Source of the DNA: a virus
Lineage: Duplodnaviria; Heunggongvirae; Uroviricota; Caudoviricetes
Strand: one strand, 5' to 3'
IMG/VR virus record: IMGVR_UViG_2925914267_000008
Span: 1 to 11,263 of that record
Length of the DNA stretch: 11,263 nt
Positions within the stretch are counted from its first letter, which is position 1. Each line of letters opens with the position of its first letter. Both the position numbers and the translations under genes were made by a program. A model generated the notes under the pieces. It was given only the letters and a program-made list of their open reading frames with translations, made no database searches and had not been told where the DNA came from. Positions 1-11,263 of the stretch are shown one piece after another.

Positions 1-1066
1 GTGGCCCTCAGTGATACCAAACTTCGTAGCATCAATGGTAAGCCCTACAGCGGCGCACCCGAAGTCACAGATGGTGACGGTTTGAGTGTGCGTATTACTC
101 CGACTGGAACGATTACATTTCAGCATCGATATCGCTGGAACGGTAAGCCTGTTCGCCTCTCTGTCGGCCGGTATCCTGCAATGTCCCTCAAAGAGGCCCG
201 CGTTATCGTCGGTGAGATGCGCGAATTGTACCTCAAGGGGCTAAACCCTAAAAATTATTTTGCCAAAGAAGATGGCGAGCTAACGCTCAAAGAGTGCCTG
301 GATCAGTGGTGGACTAAGTATGTTGAAACGCTGAAGCCTAATACCCAGACGCTGTATAAGTCGGTTGTGTACAACACCATGTACACAGAGTTCCCGGACG
401 CACCGGTCGTAAACATCCCCGTTTCGGCTTGGGTAAGGTTCTTCGACAAGCAGGAGAAGAAAAACGGGAAAAAGGCTCGGGTGCTGCTGCTCCAACTCCG
501 ATCCGTAATGAACTGGTGTATCAGCCGTCAGCTGATCCCTTCGTGCGAGGTGCTGAAACTCAGCGTTAAGACCATCGGCAAGAAACCAGACGTTGGTAGC
601 CGGGTACTCACTTATACCGAGCTGGCAAAAATCTGGTTAGCGCTGGAAAACAATAAGGTCGTTAGCTCCAATAAGGTTCTTCACCAGTTGCTGTTGCTCT
701 GGGGTGCGCGATTATCCGAACTGCGCCTGGCCACCGCAAGTGAGTTCAATATGGGCGATCTGATTTGGACGACGCCAGCCGAGCATTCCAAAATGGGAAA
801 TGTTATTCGTCGGCCTATATTCGACCAGGTTAAACCTTACATTGAAAGGCTTCTCAATGCTGGGAACGATATTCTTTTCCCGGGTCAGGAACTGGACAAG
901 GCTATAGATCGCTCCTCAGCCAATCTCTACATGAAAAAGTTAAGGGATAAAATTGATATACCGGAATGGCGAACCCACGACTTCAGGCGTTCTCTGGTAA
1001 CGAATTTGTCAGGGGAGGGGGTTATGCCCATAAGCGCTAACTTAAGGGTTGTGGTATTACGCCTGA
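1..1066 (+). pseudogene. P4-family tyrosine integrase, 3'-truncated by IS1
   Basis: GTG start at position 1. The N-terminus (MALSDTKLRSINGKPY...GDGLSVRITPTGTITFQHRYRWNGK...GRYPAMSLKEARV) fits the arm-binding domain pattern of P4-type integrases. An HxxR-like box (THDFRR) is present near the end, but the frame runs into the IS1 inverted repeat and stops at 1069-1071 before any catalytic tyrosine. Confidence 0.8.
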
Positions 1067-1089
1067 GGTAATGACTCCAACTTATTGAT
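1067..1089. repeat. IS1 terminal inverted repeat (insB-proximal end)
   Basis: Matches the canonical IS1 terminus as recalled; it is the imperfect inverted partner of 1812-1834. Confidence 0.85.
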
Positions 1090-1585
1090 AGTGTTTTATG
1101 TTCAGATAATGCCCGATGACTTTGTCATGCAGCTCCACCGATTTTGAGAACGACAGCGACTTCCGTCCCAGCCGTGCCAGGTGCTGCCTCAGATTCAGGT
1201 TATGCCGCTCAATTCGCTGCGTATATCGCTTGCTGATTACGTGCAGCTTTCCCTTCAGGCGGGATTCATACAGCGGCCAGCCATCCGTCATCCATATCAC
1301 CACGTCAAAGGGTGACAGCAGGCTCATAAGACGCCCCAGCGTCGCCATAGTGCGTTCACCGAATACGTGCGCAACAACCGTCTTCCGGAGCCTGTCATAC
1401 GCGTAAAACAGCCAGCGCTGGCGCGATTTAGCCCCGACGTATCCCCACTGTTCGTCCATTTCCGCGCAGACGATGACGTCACTGCCCGGCTGTATGCGCG
1501 AGGTTACCGACTGCGGCCTGAGTTTTTTAAGTGACGTAAAATCGTGTTGAGGCCAACGCCCATAATGCGGGCAGTTGCCCGGCAT
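1082..1585 (-). CDS. insB: IS1 InsB reading frame (expressed as InsAB' by -1 frameshift)
   Basis: The translation ...[70 protein letters not shown]... matches IS1 InsB. It overlaps the insA 3' end in the -1 frame. Confidence 0.85.
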
Positions 1586-1779
1586 CCAACGCCATTCATG
1601 GCCATATCAATGATTTTCTGGTGCGTACCGGGTTGAGAAGCGGTGTAAGTGAACTGCAGTTGCCATGTTTTACGGCAGTGAGAGCAGAGATAGCGCTGAT
1701 GTCCGGCGGTGCTTTTGCCGTTACGCACCACCCCGTCAGTAGCTGAACAGGAGGGACAGCTGATAGAAACAGAAGCCAC
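1504..1779 (-). CDS. insA: IS1 InsA (transposition inhibitor, N-terminal part of InsAB' transposase)
   Basis: The 91-aa translation [43 protein letters not shown]... is the IS1 InsA sequence as I recall it. Confidence 0.9.
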
Positions 1780-1811
1780 TGGAGCACCTCAAAAACACCA
1801 TCATACACTAA

Positions 1812-1834
1812 ATCAGTAAGTTGGCAGCATCACC
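1812..1834. repeat. IS1 terminal inverted repeat (insA-proximal end)
   Basis: Reverse complement reads GGTGATGCTGCCAACTTACTGAT, the canonical IS1 left end. The insA start lies 55 nt inside it. Confidence 0.85.
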
Positions 1835-2907
1835 CGACTTACGGTGAGCTGAAAGTCTGTGTTGACGGAGAATTTCGGGTCAGCACATCGAAGAGTGAAG
1901 GGCGTATTGTCCGCTTTGACCTGAAGTTTGTCGAAGCGGGAGAACTCTCTTACCCCACATCAGGTGCGGCGACGGCGCAGACGCTGATGTCATCCTGTTC
2001 TGCACTGGATGACTGCATCAGTGACAGTTTCAGTAGTTTCAGTATCGATGGCGTGGCAGATTTTGTGCAGAACGATGTCGTCGGTAATGCCAGCACAATG
2101 CTTGGGTATGTTTCTGATGCGATGAAAGTGGTGGATTCTGCCGTATCGGATGCCGCCAGGCTGTTGCAGGGGGATATCTCGGTACTTCTGCCGCCGCCAT
2201 CGTCAGGCAAAAATTTCGTTGAGCAGGTGCAGAAAATGTGGCGTACCGGGAAACGCCTTTATGGTAACGCCAGCGACCTGGTCACCATGATCAAAACGCT
2301 TTCCGGTGTCAGCCTCGGCAGCGATCTGCAACCGCGCGGCGTCTGGAAAACGGACAGTAAAACCACCGCCACGGCGACGCAGCAGCGTAACGTGGTTGCC
2401 AGCACCCTTCGTATGACCGCAATCAGCGAAGCGGCGTATGCCGTTACCCGATTGCCTGCGCCAACAACTTCTGCGGTGATGCAGAATGCCGCAGTGGGGC
2501 AGTCAACAACACCCGCGCAGAGCTCCGGCTGGCCTGCCGTCACGCATCCGGTGCTGAACAATGCACCGGCGGTGAAAAACACGGTTGACCTGCCAACGTG
2601 GGAAGAACTGACCGACATTCGCGACACACTGAATATGGCAATTGATAAGGAGTTGTCCCGTACAACCAGTGATGCGCTGTTTCTGGCGCTGCGCCGGGTG
2701 AAAGCAGATCTGAATGCGGATATCAACACGCGCCTTGAACAGTCTGCTCGGATCATTCAGCGCACGCCGGATGAGGTTTTACCCGCGCTGGTGCTGGCGG
2801 CGACCTGGTTTGATAACGCGGCGCGTGACGCGGACATTATCCGGCGTAATGCCATTACGCATCCCGGCTTTGTGCCGGTGATCCCTCTGAAGGTGCCAGT
2901 GCAATGA
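1835..2907 (+). pseudogene. Mu-type DNA circulation protein (N/gp43-like), 5'-truncated at the IS1 junction
   Basis: Frame 1 is open from the IS1 boundary at 1835 through the stop at 2905-2907. The first ATG is at 1987, with no plausible start or RBS before it. It sits directly upstream of the gp44/P-like gene, as in the Mu order N-P-Q. The family call rests on synteny and general resemblance, not on a search. Confidence 0.55.
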
Positions 2908-3983
2908 ACGACAATGTCACGCTACGGGTAAATGGCCGGGAGTGGAATGGCTGGACATCGGTGCGCATCGGTGCCGGTATTGAACGGCTGGCGCGGGATT
3001 TCAGCGTGGAGATCACCCGCCAGTGGCCGGGAGATGAGGGTATCACCACGCTTCAGCCGCGCATTAAAAATGGTTCAAAAGTGGAAGTGCTGATTGGTGA
3101 TGAGCTGGTGATCACCGGCTGGGTGGAGGCGACCCCCGTTCGTTACGATGCCCGTTCGGTCAGCACCGGTATTGCCGGACGTAGTCTGACTGCTGACCTG
3201 ATTGACTGTGCAGCCGAACCGACACAGTTTAACGGACGATCGCTGGTACAGATTGCGCAGGCGCTTGCTGCGCCTTTCGGCATTGAGGTGGTGAACAACG
3301 GTGCGCAGTCGGGTGTTATTCCTGACGTCCAGCCCGATCACGGTGAAACGGTGATTGAGGTAATCAACAAAATACTCGGTCAGCAGCAGGCACTGGCTTA
3401 CGACGACCCGCACGGCAGGCTGGTGATTGGTGGTATTGGCTCAACGCGGGCACATACTGCGCTGGTACTCGGGGAAAACATCCTTTCCTGCGATACGGAG
3501 AAGAGTATCCGGGAGCGGTTTTCAGTTTACCAGGTGGCGGGGCAGCGTGCCGGAAACGACGATGATTTCGGTGAGGCCACCACCACCGCGCTGCGGGCCC
3601 GCACAGAGGACGCATTTATTGCCCGTTACCGTCCGATGTATATCAGGCAGACAGGGCAGGCTACGGGGGCAGGCTGTATTGCCCGTGCGGACTTTGAAGC
3701 CCGACAACGGGCGGCGCGGACGGATGAAACCACCTATGTGGTGCAGGGCTGGCGACAGGGTAACGGTACGCTGTGGCAGCCCAACCAGCGGGTGATTGTC
3801 TTTGATCCGGTCTGTGGTTTCGACAATACCGAACTGCTTGTTTCGGAAGTCACGTTTACTCAGGACCAGAACGGCACCCTGACGGAAATCCGTGTCGGCC
3901 CGCCTGATGCTTATCTGCCTGAACCCGAAGCCCCCGGCGCGCGGAAAAAGAAAAAAGCCAGAGTACAGGAGGACCCGTTCTGA
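2904..3983 (+). CDS. Mu gp44 (P)-like baseplate hub protein
   Basis: 359-aa ORF whose start overlaps the upstream stop (ATGA at 2904-2907). Size, position and sequence character fit the Mu P/gp44 baseplate family. Confidence 0.75.
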   Translation: MNDNVTLRVNGREWNGWTSVRIGAGIERLARDFSVEITRQWPGDEGITTLQPRIKNGSKVEVLIGDELVITGWVEATPVRYDARSVSTGIAGRSLTADLIDCAAEPTQFNGRSLVQIAQALAAPFGIEVVNNGAQSGVIPDVQPDHGETVIEVINKILGQQQALAYDDPHGRLVIGGIGSTRAHTALVLGENILSCDTEKSIRERFSVYQVAGQRAGNDDDFGEATTTALRARTEDAFIARYRPMYIRQTGQATGAGCIARADFEARQRAARTDETTYVVQGWRQGNGTLWQPNQRVIVFDPVCGFDNTELLVSEVTFTQDQNGTLTEIRVGPPDAYLPEPEAPGARKKKKARVQEDPF

Positions 3984-4531
3984 TGAGGACGATTGAAGCC
4001 ATGCAGCGACAACTCCTCGGCCTGATTGGGCGGGCCGTGGTGAAAAGCATCAGTGCCGCCACGAAATGTCAGACCGTGGATGTGTTCCTGATTGCCGGTG
4101 AACCCAAAGCCGGGGTTGAACATCTTGAACCCTACGGTTTTACCGCAAGGGCAAACAGCGGTGCGGAAGCGGTGGTGTTGTTTCCGGATGGCGACCGTTC
4201 TCATGCGGTGGTTGTTACGGTGTCGGACCGTCGCTACCGCCTGAAAGGGCTGCAGACGGGTGAGGTGGCTGTCTATGACGATCAGGGGCAGTCCGTGACG
4301 CTGACCCGGGAGGGGATCGTGGTGGACGGTGCAGGTAAAACGATCACGTTTCGCAATGCACCTGAAGCACGTTTTGAAATGGACCTAGAAGTGACAGGAC
4401 AGGTGAAAGACCTGTGCGACTCCGGCGGCACCACCATGTCAGCGATGCGGCTTGCCTATAACGGGCATAGTCACAGAGAGAACGGTCAGGGCAGTAACAC
4501 CGACAAACCGGATAAAGCGATGGAGGCATGA
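3983..4531 (+). CDS. Mu gp45-like baseplate spike/assembly protein (gpV-type)
   Basis: 182-aa ORF whose start overlaps the upstream stop (TGATG at 3981-3985). Size and position fit Mu gp45. Confidence 0.75.
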   Translation: MRTIEAMQRQLLGLIGRAVVKSISAATKCQTVDVFLIAGEPKAGVEHLEPYGFTARANSGAEAVVLFPDGDRSHAVVVTVSDRRYRLKGLQTGEVAVYDDQGQSVTLTREGIVVDGAGKTITFRNAPEARFEMDLEVTGQVKDLCDSGGTTMSAMRLAYNGHSHRENGQGSNTDKPDKAMEA

Positions 4532-4956
4532 TGGAACTGTGGCTGACGGTGAACGGTAAACGCACCTGCGCCAGCGCACCGCTGGATCCGCTGACCCGCG
4601 CCGTGGTGATTTCCCTGTTTACCTGGCGGCGGGCGGAGCCTGATGACAACGCCGACGTCCCGATGGGATGGTGGGGGGATACCTGGCCTGCGGTACAGAA
4701 TGACCGTTACGGCTCCCGACTGTGGCTGCTTCAGCGCAGCAAACTGACCAATCAGCTGGTGCAGACGGTAAGGGGGTATATCCGCGAATGCCTGCAATGG
4801 ATGATTGATGATGGCGTGGTGTCCCGTATTGATCTGGATATCCGCCGCACCGGGATTAATGAACTGGGTAACAGTATCACTCTCTGGCGTCGTGACGGAC
4901 CGGTAATGATTTCTTTTGATGATCTGTGGAGTGCGATAACGCATGGCGGACAGTGA
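4528..4956 (+). CDS. Mu gp46-like baseplate protein (GP46 family)
   Basis: 142-aa ORF with ATGA overlap to the upstream gene. Size and synteny fit Mu gp46. Confidence 0.75.
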   Translation: MMELWLTVNGKRTCASAPLDPLTRAVVISLFTWRRAEPDDNADVPMGWWGDTWPAVQNDRYGSRLWLLQRSKLTNQLVQTVRGYIRECLQWMIDDGVVSRIDLDIRRTGINELGNSITLWRRDGPVMISFDDLWSAITHGGQ

Positions 4957-6001
4957 ATTTCAGCGCCCGACGCTGGCAGAAAATATCAGTATGCTCCGTA
5001 ACGATTTATTCGCCAGGCTGGACGTCAGCGACACGCTCCGGCGCATGGATGAAGACGTGCGGGCAAAGGTGTATGCGGCGGCGCTGCATACGGTTTACGG
5101 GTACATCGATTATCTGGCAATGAACATGCTGCCTGACCTGTGCGATGAGTCCTGGCTGGCGCGACATGCTGCGATGAAACGGTGTCCGCGCAAGGGGGCC
5201 ACGGCTGCCAGCGGGTATATGCGCTGGGAAGGTGTCAGCGATGGCCTGAAGGTGACCGCCGGGAGTGTTATTCAGCGCGATGACCTGGTTCAGTACACGG
5301 CAACTGCTGATGCAACCAGCTCCGGTGGTGTCCTGCGCGTGCCGATCACCTGCTCAACTACAGGCGTGGTCGGTAACGCTGACGACGGTACGGCATTAAT
5401 CCTGGTCACGCCGGTGAATGGTCTGCCGTCTTCCGGCGTGGCAGATACACTGACAGGTGGATTTGATACTGAAGAGCTGGAAACGTGGCGCGCCCGCGTC
5501 ATTGAGCGGTATTACTGGACGCCTCAGGGCGGGGCTGACGGGGACTATGTCGTCTGGGCTAAAGAAGTACCCGGCATTACCCGCGCATGGACATACCGAC
5601 ACTGGATGGGAACGGGGACTGTCGGTGTGATGATTGCCAGCAGTGACCTGATTAATCCCATTCCGGAAGAGTCAACGGAAACGGCGGCAAGACAACATAT
5701 CGGGCCACTGGCCCCGGTGGCAGGCTCTGATTTGTATGTATTCAGGCCGGTGGCGCATAAAGTGGATTTTCATATCCGCGTGACGCCGGACACACCGGAA
5801 ATACGGGCTGCCATCACCGCCGAGTTGCGTTCGTTCCTGCTGCGTGATGGTTATCCGCAGGGAGAACTGAAGGTGTCACGTATCAGTGAAGCGATTTCCG
5901 GTACGAACGGGGAATACAGCCATCAGTTGCTTGCCCCGGCGGACAATATCTCCATTGCAAAAAATGAGCTGGCGGTTCTGGGGACGATTTCATGGACGTG
6001 A
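4943..6001 (+). CDS. Mu gp47-like baseplate wedge protein (Baseplate_J family)
   Basis: 352-aa ORF overlapping the previous gene by 14 nt. Size and synteny fit Mu gp47 / P2 gpJ-type proteins. Confidence 0.8.
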
Positions 6002-6576
6002 CAAACGATGATTATATCCGTCTGTTGTCGGCACTGTTGCCGCCCGGTCCGGCGTGGTCAGTCAGCGATCCGGCGATTGCCGGTGCGGCACCGTCATTAA
6101 CCCGCGTTCATCAGCGTGCGGATGCCCTGATGCGGGAGCTGGATCCGCGCACCACCACTGAACTGATAAACCGCTGGGAGCGTCTGTGCGGTCTGCCGGA
6201 TGAATGTATTCCCGCAGGGACACAGACCCTTCGCCAGCGTCAGCAACGGCTGGATGCGAAGGTTAATCTGGCGGGCGGCATCAATGAGGATTTTTATCTT
6301 GCACAGCTTGCTGCCCTGGGCAGACCAGACGCCACTATCACGCGATACGATAAAAGCACGTTCACCTGCTCATCGGCCTGTACTGACGCAGTGAATGCGC
6401 CGGAATGGCGGTATTACTGGCAGGTCAACATGCCAGCCGCCACCAACACCACCTGGATGACATGTGGCGATCCCTGTGATTCCGCACTGCGTATCTGGGG
6501 CGACACCGTTGTCGAGTGCGTGCTTAACAAACTCTGCCCTTCGCATACCTACGTAATTTTTAAATATCCGGAGTAA
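5992..6576 (+). CDS. Mu gp48-like tail protein (DUF2313 / YmfQ-like)
   Basis: 194-aa ORF overlapping the previous gene by 10 nt. It resembles the YmfQ/gp48 family found just upstream of tail-fibre genes in Mu-like and e14-like tails. Confidence 0.75.
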
Positions 6577-6579
6577 TCC

Positions 6580-7092
6580 ATGCATCGTATAGACACGAAA
6601 ACCGCGCAGAAGGATAAGTTCGGCGCGGGTAAGAACGGTTTTACCCGTGGTAACCCCCAGACCGGCACACCTGCCACCGATCTGGATGATGACTACTTTG
6701 ACATGTTGCAGGAAGAACTTTGTAGCGTTGTTGAGGCATCCGGTGCCAGTCTGGAGAAGGCGCGGCACGACCAGCTGCTTACCGCACTTCGTGCGCTGCT
6801 GTTAAGCCGCAAGAATCCGTTTGGCGATATCAAATCGGATGGCACTGTGCAAACGGCTCTCGAAAACCTTCAATTGCGAGAATCATTCACAGGTGTGGTT
6901 GGTCAGGCCGTTAACCAGAAAATGAGCGTGGCAATAGCGTCGGCATCAGCAACATTCACCGCTGACCAGGTTATTGTTGGTGAGTCATTATCTGGCAAGC
7001 AGTACCGTGTAAGTTCGGTAAGCGAAACTATCAACCTCACCACGACTGGGGCGGGCGGGATGGATACAGGAGCAGCCCCTGCCAGTGGTTGA
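6580..7092 (+). CDS. Phage tail fibre protein, N-terminal part, ending at an in-frame TGA
   Basis: The start [47 protein letters not shown] is a conserved tail-fibre N-terminus. The ATG is 4 nt after the gp48-like stop, with GGAG upstream. The frame ends at TGA 7090-7092. Confidence 0.7.
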
Positions 7093-7626
7093 GTTGCTAT
7101 TTACCTTATTTACAACCCAACGACCAACACCTCAGCATTACTTGGTGTTAACACGACAACCGTCGTTGCGCCCACAGTCTACGGCGGTGCAAACATGCCA
7201 GCGGGATATACGGCGAGCGCACTCGTATCCGTCTGGAGAACAACAAGCGGCTCTTTGCTTCTGAATGGGTACCAGCGAGGTCGAAAATTTTGCATCCCGC
7301 GTGTAGATGTACTGACCACAAGCAGTAACCCAGGACCATACTCACCAATCCCTCTTAGCGCAGCCGTACCGCTAAACGCTATAGCAGCGAGTGGTTACGC
7401 ATTCTGTAACTCAGGCTCTGGTTCTGGGTTTGCGGTTTTGTCTGTCGGGTCTGATGCAAATGGGCTTGGGTATTTTCAGGTGTATGCCGGGCTGGTTGGT
7501 TCGCTAGGGAGCGATATCTATTTTGAGAATACCCTCGCTGAACCTCAAAAACTTTACTACACGTTTACCTGGACAACGCCAGCAGTGTCAAATGCCACCA
7601 TTGGGATAAGCGGTTATACGATCTAA
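7093..7626 (+). pseudogene. Tail fibre distal part, in the same frame as 6580..7092 across one TGA
   Basis: Same frame as the upstream tail-fibre ORF, with no further stop from 7093 to 7626. The 34 codons between the TGA and the first ATG (7195) read as Thr/Asn/Ser/Val/Gly-rich, fibre-like sequence, and there is no RBS ahead of 7195. Confidence 0.45.
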
Positions 7627-7636
7627 GGAGTGAATT

Positions 7637-7804
7637 ATGTCTGTTGTATATGTGCAGTTCTCTGATGAGAAAGAAACAGAAATTGTCTCTGTTTTTGCAT
7701 CTCCGGCCGACCCGGATTACTACCAGTTTTTGGGGGAGGTAGAGGGGGATGATGAGCGGCTTAAAATCTTTTGGAAGCAATTCCCTCAGCATGCCGTAGG
7801 TTGA
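7637..7804 (+). CDS. Hypothetical small protein (55 aa), not in the ORF track
   Basis: ATG at 7637 is preceded by AAGGAG at 7625-7630 with 6-nt spacing. Translation: MSVVYVQFSDEKETEIVSVFASPADPDYYQFLGEVEGDDERLKIFWKQFPQHAVG. It sits directly after the tail fibre, where assembly chaperones or cargo genes usually lie. I do not recognise a family. Confidence 0.4.
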   Translation: MSVVYVQFSDEKETEIVSVFASPADPDYYQFLGEVEGDDERLKIFWKQFPQHAVG

Positions 7805-7994
7805 TTGGATAATAAGTCGCTAGGTGAGAACTGGCGGATAATTTTTCTAGATAAGTTTTTAGCAACCAGCATTCCTGTTTTTTATATCCAGGATTTTGGT
7901 TTACAGTACTTATTTTTAACTGTATTGAGGATGGCGAAAACAGATTGAAAATTACATCCAGATCACCCAATCGATAATCAACCATTATAAAAAA

Positions 7995-8014
7995 GGCTCC
8001 CTTTTTAGGGAGCC
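7995..8014. terminator. Intrinsic terminator hairpin between convergent genes
   Basis: Perfect 8-bp stem GGCTCCCT / AGGGAGCC with a TTTT loop. On the minus strand it is followed by TTTTTTATAA, 9 nt downstream of the acyltransferase stop. On the plus strand it is preceded by an A-run, with only a weak T-tract after it. Confidence 0.65.
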
Positions 8015-8022
8015 TTGTGTGG

Positions 8023-9273
8023 TTATATTTTTGCTTTGCTGATAAAATTATCTAGGGTTTTTCCTACGGTGCGGCTAAGTATCACTGATTTTTTCTCTAT
8101 TAATTGATAAAATATCATTGAACCAATTAAAGAAAGAGTGACGAATACTAAAAAGGAAGCAATGTATGCTAAATAAACGTTATTTGTATGAATATATACA
8201 TATAGGTTTATTGGCATTATTGCAGATGAAAGAACTAACCAGTGAACAAGGTATAAAGAGAAAGAAATTTTCCCAAAAAATTGAACAAGTTTAGTGGATA
8301 GGAAATCGCGAATGTATCCTCTGGACATTACTAGAATTAGCAATAATATTGCACCGACACCACGTAAAAACTCGTATGGGTGGTAAGGGAACATCCCAGG
8401 AATCGATAAGTCTTGCATGTTTATTAATGGGGCAACAAAATAGTTCCCTGGTATAAAAATCCAACCCCAGGGATAGAATACCGGGCAACTTTGAAGTATC
8501 ACTATAGCTAATATCATTAGCAAAGTAATAACGTATTTTTCTTTGTTGTTAAATAAATTGCTTGTTTTTTCGTCGGCAAACAAGATGGATATCCATGCGC
8601 CAATGAGAAGAAAAAACACATAATATCCGTAACTAAAGATAGTAAATAAAAATAATAAAAGAATGCCATGCCTTGAGTTATTTCTTCCTACCTGAGCAAC
8701 AATTAATAGTAACAGCGAGCCCATAAACTCAGTCGACATTGACCATATTACAGGGTTAAGAAATCTAGTTGAAAAATCTGTGGTATATAGCGTAAGAATG
8801 CCTTGCTTTATTACTTCATCGAAAGCTACATTTTCATCGTGATCATAACGAAATCCAGATTTTACTAAGATATATCCAATAATACAGGAAGCAAATACAG
8901 GAACACCAAGTCGAATAAAACGACGTATTAATGATGCTATAAATGTTGTATTTGCTTTGAAGGCGCCAAGAAGAATTGCGCCAGATAAGATGAAAAAAAC
9001 TATAGTAGCAAAATTACCATTGATAGTGAATACGAATGGTGTCGTTTCAGTAAATTCGTAGAATTTTGAAAGCCAATAAGGGAATGCATCTGGGTAGTGT
9101 GAAAGCATAAAAAGCTTTGTTTCACCAAAAAAATGACCATAAGCAACAATTATAGCCATTAGTCCGCGTAACCCATCAAAATATAGGATTCTGTTCTTTT
9201 TTTGTTCCAATTTATTGAACCTCATCATTTCAAAATAGTGAGCAATGATAGTGTTAAGAGTGTAGTAAAGCAA
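8023..9273 (-). CDS. Acyltransferase family 3 integral membrane protein (Oac/OafA-like O-acetyltransferase candidate)
   Basis: The N-terminal motif RILYFDGLRGLMAIIVAYGHFFGE and the later FFILSGAIL segment are typical of the acyltransferase-3 family. The protein is very hydrophobic with many predicted helices. The gene is AT-rich (roughly 30% GC) against GC-rich neighbours. The start is uncertain: TTG at 9273 with GAAGG upstream, or ATG at 9228 or 9225. Confidence 0.85.
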   Translation of the reverse strand: MLYYTLNTIIAHYFEMMRFNKLEQKKNRILYFDGLRGLMAIIVAYGHFFGETKLFMLSHYPDAFPYWLSKFYEFTETTPFVFTINGNFATIVFFILSGAILLGAFKANTTFIASLIRRFIRLGVPVFASCIIGYILVKSGFRYDHDENVAFDEVIKQGILTLYTTDFSTRFLNPVIWSMSTEFMGSLLLLIVAQVGRNNSRHGILLLFLFTIFSYGYYVFFLLIGAWISILFADEKTSNLFNNKEKYVITLLMILAIVILQSCPVFYPWGWIFIPGNYFVAPLINMQDLSIPGMFPYHPYEFLRGVGAILLLILVMSRGYIRDFLSTKLVQFFGKISFSLYLVHWLVLSSAIMPINLYVYIHTNNVYLAYIASFLVFVTLSLIGSMIFYQLIEKKSVILSRTVGKTLDNFISKAKI

Positions 9274-9396
9274 TGCCTTCTGGAATCGAAGTTAAAACAA
9301 CGGAGCTTAAATTAGTTGAAGTGAGATTTGCTAATAAAGGTAATAAATTCAATCAATTACTTCTTGAGGGCGTATTGGTGTTAAGAAGATTTTAAC

Positions 9397-9405
9397 ATTG
9401 TATCA
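9397..9405 (-). promoter_or_regulatory. Possible extended -10 element (TGATACAAT on minus strand) upstream of the acyltransferase
   Basis: TGnTACAAT motif about 125 nt upstream of the acyltransferase start in AT-rich DNA. No clear -35. This is a sequence-pattern guess only. Confidence 0.2.
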
Positions 9406-10232
9406 CATACCACGGGGGCATTCTGATGAAATCAGAAAAATAGACAGGGTAATAGCTATCGATTGATGATGGTGGTTGCTATGCTTCATATAGAGTTTCC
9501 GATACTATCACGCACATTATTAATGATAGCAGAACGGTGGAGTTTAATGGTTGGCCAAGCCTTGTTGAACAATGGTTAATCATGCTGTTTTAATATACCT
9601 TCTTTGGAGAAAAATGCTAACAACTCCAACGTGCATTGCCCGAGATTGGCTGTAACCATAATAATTTTATGGAGTTTATTGAATAAACCCGAGTTAGTAG
9701 ACAGGATGACGCCTACCGGAACACCCGTTATGCGATGCGGACGCTGTCCGGCATACCCAGCACGGTCATCCGGTTTAGCGCTTTGACCATCGCCGTTTCT
9801 GCCACTGAACGACGGTGATAACCCACTTTCTTTTTCCAAACATAATTGCTGGATAGGGTCAGGGTTATTATGATGCTTGGAATTATCGAACGCTGCCGCA
9901 GAATGTTAGAGAACGGAGCAATCCGGCAACGTGATCGGTGTGGGGGTAAAGACGATTTATAAATACTTTCCTGTCACAAGTCCAGCGCGTAATGCCAGTT
10001 CCCGAGTGTAGGTATGATCATGAAAAAGTGGTGCGCACCTAAATATCTTTAATACAGGCGTAGGATGCCATGCATTAGGATCGGGTTAAACAGGGATGTT
10101 TACGTTCTGGAAAACTGCCCGCAGATAGCCGGCGTGATCTAGAATGATTTTTGTGTACATATATGTGTACTGTACAAAAGAAGATTTGGCTTTTAATTTC
10201 AATAAAAACAATAAATTGAATTGTTTTTAAAA

Positions 10233-10255
10233 TATATCCATTTAACTAAGAGGAC
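10233..10255 (-). tRNA. argW: tRNA-Arg (argW) 5' fragment, first 23 nt only
   Basis: The minus strand reads GTCCTCTTAGTTAAATGGATATA, identical to the first 23 nt of E. coli argW as I recall it, and lies 75 nt downstream of yfdC as expected. The next bases (TTTTAAAAACAATTC...) are AT-rich and cannot form the rest of a tRNA. Confidence 0.55.
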
Positions 10256-10330
10256 AATGCGGCATGAGTATACCCGCTAATGGAGTGCGGGGTAAGTACG
10301 CTGCCGCTCGATTGCTTAAACCCTCGCCAT

Positions 10331-11263
10331 TTATGCCGGGTTTTTATAATTTTTCTTAATGTTTTCCGCACGTTCTGCTTTTTGGCGTGCTTCTGCTTTA
10401 CGCTTATTGCTCATGTCGTTACGAATCTGTGCATGACTCATTAACGCGAAGATAAAGGTGCCGCCGCAGATGTTCCCCGCTAAAGTAGGTAGTGCGAAGG
10501 GCCAGATGAAATCGCTCCAGTGCAGCGTACCGTTAAACACCAGATAGAGGATTTCAACAGAACCGACCACGATATGGGTGGTGTCACCCAGGGCAATAAG
10601 CCAGGTCATCAATATAATCACCACAATCTTTGCCGCACCCGCTGCAGGAAACATCCAAACCATAGTGGCGATCAGCCAGCCGGAAATGATCGCGTTGGCA
10701 AACATCTCGCTGGGGGTGTTCTTCATCACATCCATGCCGATTTTGACAAATGCATCGCGAGTTTCTTCATTGAAGATAGGCATATATTCAAATGCCCACG
10801 CCGCAATACCTGTCCCGAGAATATTACCCAGCAGCACGACGCCCCATAACCGTATAAGTAAGCCGACGTTGCTCATTGTCGGTTTTTGCATGACGGGTAG
10901 TACCGCAGTCACGGTATTTTCGGTAAATAATTGCTGGCGGGCCATAATGACGATAATAAAACCAAAGGTATAACCGAGATTCTCCAGCAAGAAGCTGCCC
11001 GGCACACCTTCCAGTTCGACTTGAAATATCCCTTTTGCCAGTAACGAAGCGCCCATCGACAGACCCGCCGCAATGGCTGACCACAGTAGCGCCATTGCGT
11101 CGCGTTCCAGCTCTTTTTCACCATCCTGGCGGATATGCTCATGAATTGCCATCGCCCGGGAGGGGAGTCGGTCTTCATCTATTTCTATTTTTTTGCCGCG
11201 CTCTTTTTCTTCGCTCTCAACTTCAATTTCGTCGCTGTGTTGATCAATTTTGTCGTTGTCCAT
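10331..11263 (-). CDS. yfdC: Formate/nitrite transporter family inner membrane protein YfdC
   Basis: The 310-aa translation (MDNDKIDQHSDEIEVESEEKERGKK...NYKNPA) matches E. coli YfdC as recalled. It is a full-length ORF whose start codon is the last three bases of the window. Confidence 0.9.
   Translation of the reverse strand: MDNDKIDQHSDEIEVESEEKERGKKIEIDEDRLPSRAMAIHEHIRQDGEKELERDAMALLWSAIAAGLSMGASLLAKGIFQVELEGVPGSFLLENLGYTFGFIIVIMARQQLFTENTVTAVLPVMQKPTMSNVGLLIRLWGVVLLGNILGTGIAAWAFEYMPIFNEETRDAFVKIGMDVMKNTPSEMFANAIISGWLIATMVWMFPAAGAAKIVVIILMTWLIALGDTTHIVVGSVEILYLVFNGTLHWSDFIWPFALPTLAGNICGGTFIFALMSHAQIRNDMSNKRKAEARQKAERAENIKKNYKNPA

Follow-up and report, generated by a model that had tools for sequence, protein, structure and literature searches.

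What is encoded by a short reading frame that starts behind a strong ribosome-binding site immediately downstream of a phage tail fibre? The question arises from a stretch of 11,263 nucleotides of caudoviricete DNA (positions 1 to 11,263 of the IMG/VR record IMGVR_UViG_2925914267_000008), hereafter called the window. An initial annotation, made from the sequence alone, had pointed to an unannotated reading frame of 55 codons, here named ORF55, and had considered either a fragment of a tail-fibre assembly chaperone or a small cargo protein at the moron position. The features of the window, and those of the loci used for comparison, are collected in Table 1.

Table 1. Positions of the features in the window and in the compared loci (each locus in its own numbering)
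Locus	Feature	Position	Strand	Remarks
Window	Tyrosine integrase	1-1071		Arm-DNA-bind_3 and Phage_integrase
Window	IS1 transposase	1082-1585	-	
Window	Tail-fibre gene, pseudogene	6580-7626	+	348 codons in intact alleles
Window	Fibre C-terminal ~250-aa domain	6877-7626	+	TGAGGMDTG...YAIYNP...ASALVSVW...SGY-x-[FI] end
Window	Nonsense codon TGA replacing Trp171 (TGG)	7090-7092	+	Within the conserved fibre-tip domain
Window	Shine-Dalgarno sequence AAGGAG	7625-7630	+	6-nt spacer to the ORF55 ATG; overlaps the fibre TAA (7624-7626)
Window	ORF55, small ORF behind the fibre	7637-7804	+	55 aa; ATG 7637-7639; stop TGA 7802-7804
Window	AT-rich cassette	7805-9500		
Window	Terminator-like hairpin	7993-8016		
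Window	Acyl_transf_3 gene	8023-9273	-	Convergent with ORF55; E=3.5e-21
Window	Stretch from acyltransferase to yfdC-like gene	9300-10330		~1 kb; only short ORFs
BcepMu (L002/L178, NC_005882.1)	Unannotated family member	35264-35464		66 aa; good Shine-Dalgarno sequence
PE067 (L003, KT803877.1)	Unannotated family member	4001-4183		Good Shine-Dalgarno sequence; 3' end overlaps a convergent acetyltransferase gene
YeP1	Family member	18198-18380		60 aa
L006	Intact fibre allele	6944-7990		Trp171 present
L093 (Kluyvera cryocrescens, GCA_047779365.1)	Apparent invertible fibre segment	2505-5401		
L093	Serine resolvase/invertase	2505-3083	-	
L093	Short inverted repeats	3116-3130 and 5306-5320		
L093	Silent fibre-C cassette with family member	3124-4189	+	No fibre N-terminus; promoterless
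L093	20-nt hairpin	4192-4241		
L093	Different 59-aa ORF	4258-4437	Opposite to silent cassette	Belongs to the active fibre
L093	Active 320-aa fibre	4439-5401	Opposite to silent cassette	
L067 (IMGVR_UViG_2924902001_000004)	Two inverted fibre-C cassettes	2701-4896		Tail to tail
L067	Family member of one cassette	3716-3925	+	
L067	Family member of the other cassette	3938-4117	-	
L129 (Pseudomonas syringae group)	49-aa family member	3743-3892		Between 553-aa Rbp-like fibre and lysozyme/spanin genes
L146 (Pseudomonas syringae group)	49-aa family member	3752-3901		Between 553-aa Rbp-like fibre and lysozyme/spanin genes

ORF55 is a small gene under purifying selection

The 55-aa translation of ORF55 is MSVVYVQFSDEKETEIVSVFASPADPDYYQFLGEVEGDDERLKIFWKQFPQHAVG. 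The coordinates and the AAGGAG hexamer six nucleotides before the ATG were found as initially claimed, and the AAGGAG-N6-ATG pattern is unique in the window, with one occurrence against 0.07 expected from shuffles. The product has 6.37 kDa and is acidic, as described (pI 4.2). Neither a signal peptide nor a membrane segment was found in its sequence, and no promoter-like site was found between the fibre and ORF55. The position directly after the tail fibre holds for the distance, as a gap of 10 nt separates the fibre reading frame from the ORF55 start; however, an in-frame TGA breaks that fibre frame. Likewise, the term unannotated fits the homologues in the BcepMu and PE067 records, whereas for the identical 55-aa protein a record titled 'hypothetical protein [Escherichia coli]' exists. 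In the assembly collection, 350 index blocks contain this identical protein, and 162 contigs with an E. coli label were found to carry it. The ORF55 DNA was absent from all 5,426 RefSeq complete E. coli genomes and present in draft and other assemblies.

A search against PHROGs v4 matched ORF55 to phrog_20339 (E=2e-16), with residues 4-53 placed on profile positions 2-51 of 62. ORF55 shares both the profile match and the size class and is a member of this family. The PHROG itself is of unknown function and carries no functional annotation; the link to a fibre tip and to fusions with tail-fibre assembly (Tfa) proteins comes from the present analysis. Word-indexed searches resulted in 13 close relatives and then 106 wider ones, from Escherichia, Kluyvera, Yersinia, Pantoea, Dickeya, Burkholderia, Herbaspirillum, Collimonas, and Pseudomonas, and the named relatives were all labelled 'hypothetical'. 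An exhaustive profile search, with representatives defined as 50%-identity clusters, resulted in 583 representatives at E<=1e-3, and in 384 at E<=1e-10. One 741-aa protein (P0262) that fell into the 90% cluster of ORF55 is unrelated to it and was rejected as a clustering artefact. Most family members are stand-alone proteins of 48-90 aa, and eight positions are near-invariant (V6, Q7, F8, D10, F20, G33, D39, and R41), all of which are present in ORF55.

The reading frame is kept in the close relatives, with dN/dS between 0.08 and 0.24 over the 52-codon core. Residues 1-52 are conserved among them and everything 3' of residue 52 is swapped, the last residues being wholly different (AVG, ELEIIQERV, GLGSRSSTP, and others). 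As these C-terminal ends differ completely, a recombination junction with the downstream cargo is placed at the extreme 3' end of the gene.

The AlphaFold2 model built with the family alignment was confident (pLDDT 89.6) and consists of three strands followed by two short helices. The Pfam search of ORF55 found no family even at E<=1, including Caudo_TAP (PF02413), Phage_tail_APC (PF16778), and DUF4376 (PF14301). The NCBIfam scan gave no match, the sequence profile search of the PDB none at E<=10, and Foldseek of the model against the PDB nothing below E=2. The only Foldseek match in BFVD was an uncharacterised 59-aa protein of Pseudomonas phage PPpW-3 (E=6e-3), which is probably another member of the family.

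The window holds 128 ORFs of at least 30 aa, and a chance reading frame with a fortuitous SD-like hexamer might be expected among so many. Against a chance origin stand the phrog_20339 match, the 583 representatives, the confident model, the purifying selection, and the low expectation for the SD-ATG pattern, and the conservation data exclude it. ORF55 is a gene under purifying selection, and the initial annotation was right in treating it as a real small gene.

The fibre gene and the prophage around ORF55 are decayed

The window comprises the end of a decayed prophage of the SfV/Mu type. After the integrase and the IS1 transposase, homology to intact prophage copies resumes only at 1831, inside a tail gene, and continues with 99.9% identity to the L006 copy over 1831-11263. 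The prophage is thus an IS1-associated deletion remnant without the head genes and most of the tail genes. The baseplate genes past 1831 are of the Mu Gp45, Gp46, J, and Gp48 types, and they are followed by the fibre, ORF55, and an AT-rich stretch. At the far end of the window lies a chromosomal yfdC-like formate/nitrite-transporter gene, and ARAGORN found no tRNA in the window.

The first ~380 nt of the fibre gene are 94-98% identical to the 5' ends of the SfV, SfI, SfII, and SfIV fibres and of many E. coli prophages, and the N-terminal ~100 aa are common to SfV-type fibres. Both halves of the interrupted gene match the tail-fibre family phrog_11518 contiguously, and an intact 348-aa fibre gene is called in four copies (L005-L008). 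Codon 171 is Trp (TGG) in five near-identical copies (L005-L009), and the TGA of the window recurs in L010 (GCA_053164715.1); the aligned homologues have Tyr or Phe at this position. The fibre gene of the window is a pseudogene.

Just past ORF55, the GC content falls from ~52% to 31-36%, and the AT-rich cassette carries the acyltransferase gene. The selected part of the remnant is likely this O-antigen-type acyltransferase. Because the fibre carries the W171-to-stop change and the prophage is an IS1-truncated remnant, ORF55 in the window is probably an intact but idle relic.

The small gene belongs with one fibre-tip domain

A tblastn search of phage genomes gave ORF55 homologues in BcepMu and about 12 other Burkholderia phages, in Yersinia phages YeP1-3, and in Ralstonia phages. 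In YeP1, BcepMu, PE067, and Hyacinthe, each of which was inspected, the homologue starts 9-16 nt past the tail-fibre stop. The fibres of these four phages have 399-785 aa and unlike N-terminal parts, and they have the C-terminal ~250-aa domain in common. Their ends (BcepMu gp52, PE067_025, and Hyacinthe_030 in the latter three) are 41-46% identical to the C-terminal domain of the window fibre, with 58 invariant columns.

The converse synteny test was carried out with loci picked solely by the fibre C-terminal ~250-aa domain, in one viral and one genomic collection. A family member on the same strand, between -40 and +47 nt of the fibre stop, was present in 76 of the 79 viral loci and in 65 of the 79 genomic loci. 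Pooling the loci with at least 200 nt downstream of the fibre resulted in a same-strand family member at 141 of 155 (91%). The start offsets from the fibre stop were mostly -4 to +16 nt, with modes at -4 and -1, where stop and start overlap, and at +7 to +13. The short form (up to 90 aa) accounts for 123 of these 141 loci, with a median of 62 aa, and it occurs in Enterobacterales, Burkholderiales, and Pseudomonas; its carriers include phages whose complete genomes have been deposited. Among the 14 loci without a detectable member, five have in its place a Tfa-like protein whose N-domain is divergent, and another (L077) has a recognisably divergent short form.

Two different baseplate backbones were found to carry the pair of fibre and small ORF. 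When the divergence of the small protein was compared with that of the proximal and the distal fibre domain in a mirror-tree analysis, the correlations were weak and did not discriminate between the two domains. In a separate observation, three loci (L012-L014, 3760-3873) carry an AT-rich 37-aa truncated variant of the module behind the closest divergent fibre (74% identity to the tip domain of the window fibre); apparent frame-shifted fragments follow the variant, possibly a decaying two-domain version.

The gene that follows the small ORF is variable. The next large ORF is an Acyl_transf_3 gene in 21 of the 57 non-redundant viral loci (~37%), and the others include integrases, GDSL lipases, methyltransferases, and lysis genes. 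GDSL/SGNH enzymes stand in place of Acyl_transf_3 behind the fibre tip in Hyacinthe and in two of the 57 viral loci. This recurrent arrangement suggests a pairing of the fibre tip with acyl modification of surface polysaccharide, possibly for receptor masking.

These data bear on the cargo proposal, in which ORF55 would be a lysogen-expressed regulator or an immunity or exclusion factor of the acyltransferase cassette, unrelated to fibre assembly. ORF55 does lie at the fibre/moron boundary, where the base composition changes, and an Acyl_transf_3 gene adjoins the small gene not only in the window but also in BcepMu, PE067, and YeP1, besides being the next large ORF at the 21 viral loci given above. 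However, the small ORF accompanies the fibre domain at 91% of the loci, and the acyltransferase follows in far fewer. It has the orientation of the fibre gene, and in many cases its start overlaps the fibre stop codon (ATGA). ORF55 is convergent to the acyltransferase and is therefore outside the acyltransferase operon. The lack of a signal peptide, a membrane segment, and a promoter-like site of its own, and the conservation of residues 1-52 next to a swapped 3' side, also argue against a cargo gene. We consider this origin highly improbable, and the cargo suggestion of the initial annotation is not supported. As the family is present at 91% of the fibre-domain loci while the next gene varies, it belongs with the fibre and not with the cargo.

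Longer relatives join the module to known chaperone C-domains

Approximately 30% of the top 150 family representatives are longer proteins of 109-225 aa with the module at the N-terminus, and ORF55 is homologous to their N-terminal ~50 aa. Among 41 longer homologues scanned, 24 have a known fibre-chaperone domain C-terminal to the module: DUF4376 in nine, Phage_tail_APC in eight (best 1.7e-21), and Caudo_TAP in seven (best 1.7e-20). For example, the long relative P0133 matches Caudo_TAP with a score of 42.5 bits, the cut-off being 22.1. This Pfam family takes its name from the tail-fibre assembly proteins of Caudovirales, a class that includes Mu Tfa and P2 gpG.

The fibre chaperones gp27 of Alteromonas phage V22 and gp9 of A5 have DUF4376 as their C-domain (PMC10579305). 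In the published modular model of Tfa proteins, the N-domain is not conserved and attaches to the distal part of the fibre, whereas a conserved helical domain at the C-terminus forms the trimer (PMC9608196, citing North et al. 2019); the structures of Mu Tfa and Pam3 gp25 are in support of this model. The long relatives carry the ORF55 module N-terminal to C-domains of the Tfa type, and, on this basis and that of the modular model, ORF55 corresponds by homology to the fibre-specific N-module alone of modular Tfa proteins. The C-terminal helical oligomerisation domain of Tfa is absent from ORF55, which ends at residue 55. ORF55 is accordingly not a full-length Tfa, in line with the initial remark that it is much shorter than a tail-fibre chaperone.

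The comparison with known systems shows what is shared and what is not. The family resembles Mu Tfa (gpU/U'), P2 gpG, and lambda Tfa in that the gene lies directly downstream of the fibre. Relatives such as P0133 have a genuine Caudo_TAP C-domain fused to the same N-module, whereas ORF55 has neither this domain nor a Caudo_TAP match. Pam3 gp25, V22 gp27, and A5 gp9 have a variable fibre-binding N-domain and a conserved C-domain, and the modular logic is common to them and the family; however, ORF55 has only the N-module, which has no sequence similarity to their N-domains. The gp24 protein of Burkholderia phage E094 was rejected as evidence for the family, as it is a Mu-type Tfa of the classical kind that serves a T4 gp37-like tip (PMC8174754).

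ORF55 might instead be a functionless remnant of a full-length Tfa gene that the AT-rich cassette cut when it inserted. Its matches to the longer Tfa-like proteins are confined to their N-terminus, it lies at the short end of the family without the common ...LPxP tail, its close relatives have variable C-terminal tails, and the prophage around it is decaying. Nevertheless, the stand-alone form of 48-90 aa is the rule at the fibre-domain loci, complete phage genomes included, and its dN/dS is well below 1. Furthermore, no C-domain-like ORF or remnant follows ORF55 in the window, where the sequence past the stop is unrelated, and a C-domain-like ORF lies within 3 kb of only five stand-alone loci. 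A remnant is, in our judgement, very unlikely. From the initial suggestion of a chaperone fragment, the homology to the N-terminal ~50 aa of Tfa-type proteins is retained, whereas the idea of a truncation product is not, given that the short form is frequent and selected. The match to the N-terminus of longer proteins, which the initial annotation had connected with truncation, was indeed found; however, it loses that meaning with the short form being the majority.

The family in phages, inverted cassettes, and tailocin-like clusters

In BcepMu, the tail genes follow the P2 order (FI, FII, T, U, D, V, W, J, I, and H) with no annotated gpG/Tfa, and the 66-aa family member occupies the P2 gpG position. 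The six-frame translation of BcepMu had no match to the C-terminal tails of 41 Tfa proteins.

Like the Mu Tfa/Caudo_TAP class, which travels with the variable C-part of the fibre also in inverted or invertible cassettes, the family was found in two such arrangements. The Kluyvera locus L093 has a layout like that of the Mu G segment (Sv'-U'), with the small ORF in the U' position. The different 59-aa ORF of its active fibre had no Pfam match and was therefore rejected as a PF16778 protein; it may be another uncharacterised mini-chaperone. At locus L067, each of the two tail-to-tail cassettes has its own family member, and the cassettes are flanked by inverted repeats of 61-71 nt; the sole recombinase nearby is a tyrosine integrase.

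The gene layout around the two 49-aa members from the Pseudomonas syringae group is similar to that of the R-type syringacin cluster. According to the tailocin literature, Rbp and chaperone are both needed and are exchanged as a pair; the Pto2170 chaperone has 60 aa and that of USA011R 189 aa. Those papers based the chaperone role on synteny, and their deletions took out Rbp and chaperone together. The short chaperones of P. syringae R-type tailocins are likewise encoded by small genes that immediately follow the Rbp gene in a tail cluster of the Mu/SfV kind, and the two 49-aa members could be such short 'chaperone' alleles.

Proposed role of ORF55

The family gene has the same orientation as one fibre-tip domain and is in many cases translationally coupled to it, and its module is fused to three known chaperone C-domains. 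From this, we infer the fibre binding, the chaperone activity, and the stoichiometry discussed here for ORF55. ORF55 is probably a minimal tail-fibre assembly chaperone that has only the N-domain and binds the fibre tip.

In the proposed mechanism, ORF55 would be part of the late tail transcript and would be translated by way of a strong Shine-Dalgarno sequence of its own; since this sequence overlaps the fibre stop codon, the protein would be made alongside the fibre. The acidic 6.4-kDa domain is predicted to bind the conserved C-terminal domain of the fibre and to hold three fibre C-termini in register, so that folding of the trimer would start at the tip. Such tip-first registering was shown for Mu Tfa and Pam3 gp25 and is here proposed for ORF55. 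The protein may then stay on the finished fibre as a cap. Without a trimerisation domain, one copy of ORF55 per fibre chain might bind, or the fibre domain might rely on its own trimerisation. That a stand-alone module of ~55-65 aa is enough to chaperone or cap a trimeric fibre without the Tfa C-domain is a possibility that we advance tentatively.

The same data also fit a permanent accessory or adhesin of the fibre tip, in place of a folding helper or in addition to one, which would be bound to the mature tip and contribute to, or gate, binding of the LPS receptor; this role differs from that of a chaperone only in the events after folding. The positional coupling is the same for both, and Mu Tfa is reported to stay on the fibre and to assist LPS binding (PMC8174754; PMC9608196). 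The missing trimerisation domain would suit a cap with one copy per chain, and the genes behind this fibre type often modify surface polysaccharide, which suggests LPS as the receptor. However, the very small size and strong acidity of the ORF55 protein speak against this role, the searches detected no carbohydrate-binding fold in it, and the module and its versions with a classical chaperone C-domain are interchangeable. A permanent accessory is thus an unlikely role, and we favour the minimal chaperone.

Implications for fibre assembly and retargeting

For this window, ORF55 has no obvious consequence, and the finding is ordinary at this locus. A fibre with a cognate chaperone encoded downstream is well known, and short chaperone alleles had already been noted by synteny in tailocins. 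The present analysis adds a delimited, widespread, and unannotated family that is tied one-to-one to a specific fibre-tip domain. It also identifies the family as the N-module of modular Tfa proteins, which in most cases occurs without the C-domain that was supposed to be essential.

The pair of fibre and chaperone is the unit that is swapped in the retargeting of phages and tailocins. The family is missed or called 'hypothetical' in databases, and it is absent from the RefSeq BcepMu record; as a result, the transplant of a tip without the 150-200-bp ORF behind it may give no folded fibre. If the N-domain alone suffices, the Tfa model, which places the essential conserved activity in the C-domain, needs refining, and the 'conserved core' of Tfa would be dispensable for one widespread type of fibre tip. 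The module would then represent a new minimal chaperone fold, as it has no solved structural relative, and it could be transferred together with the tip domain for phage and tailocin retargeting.
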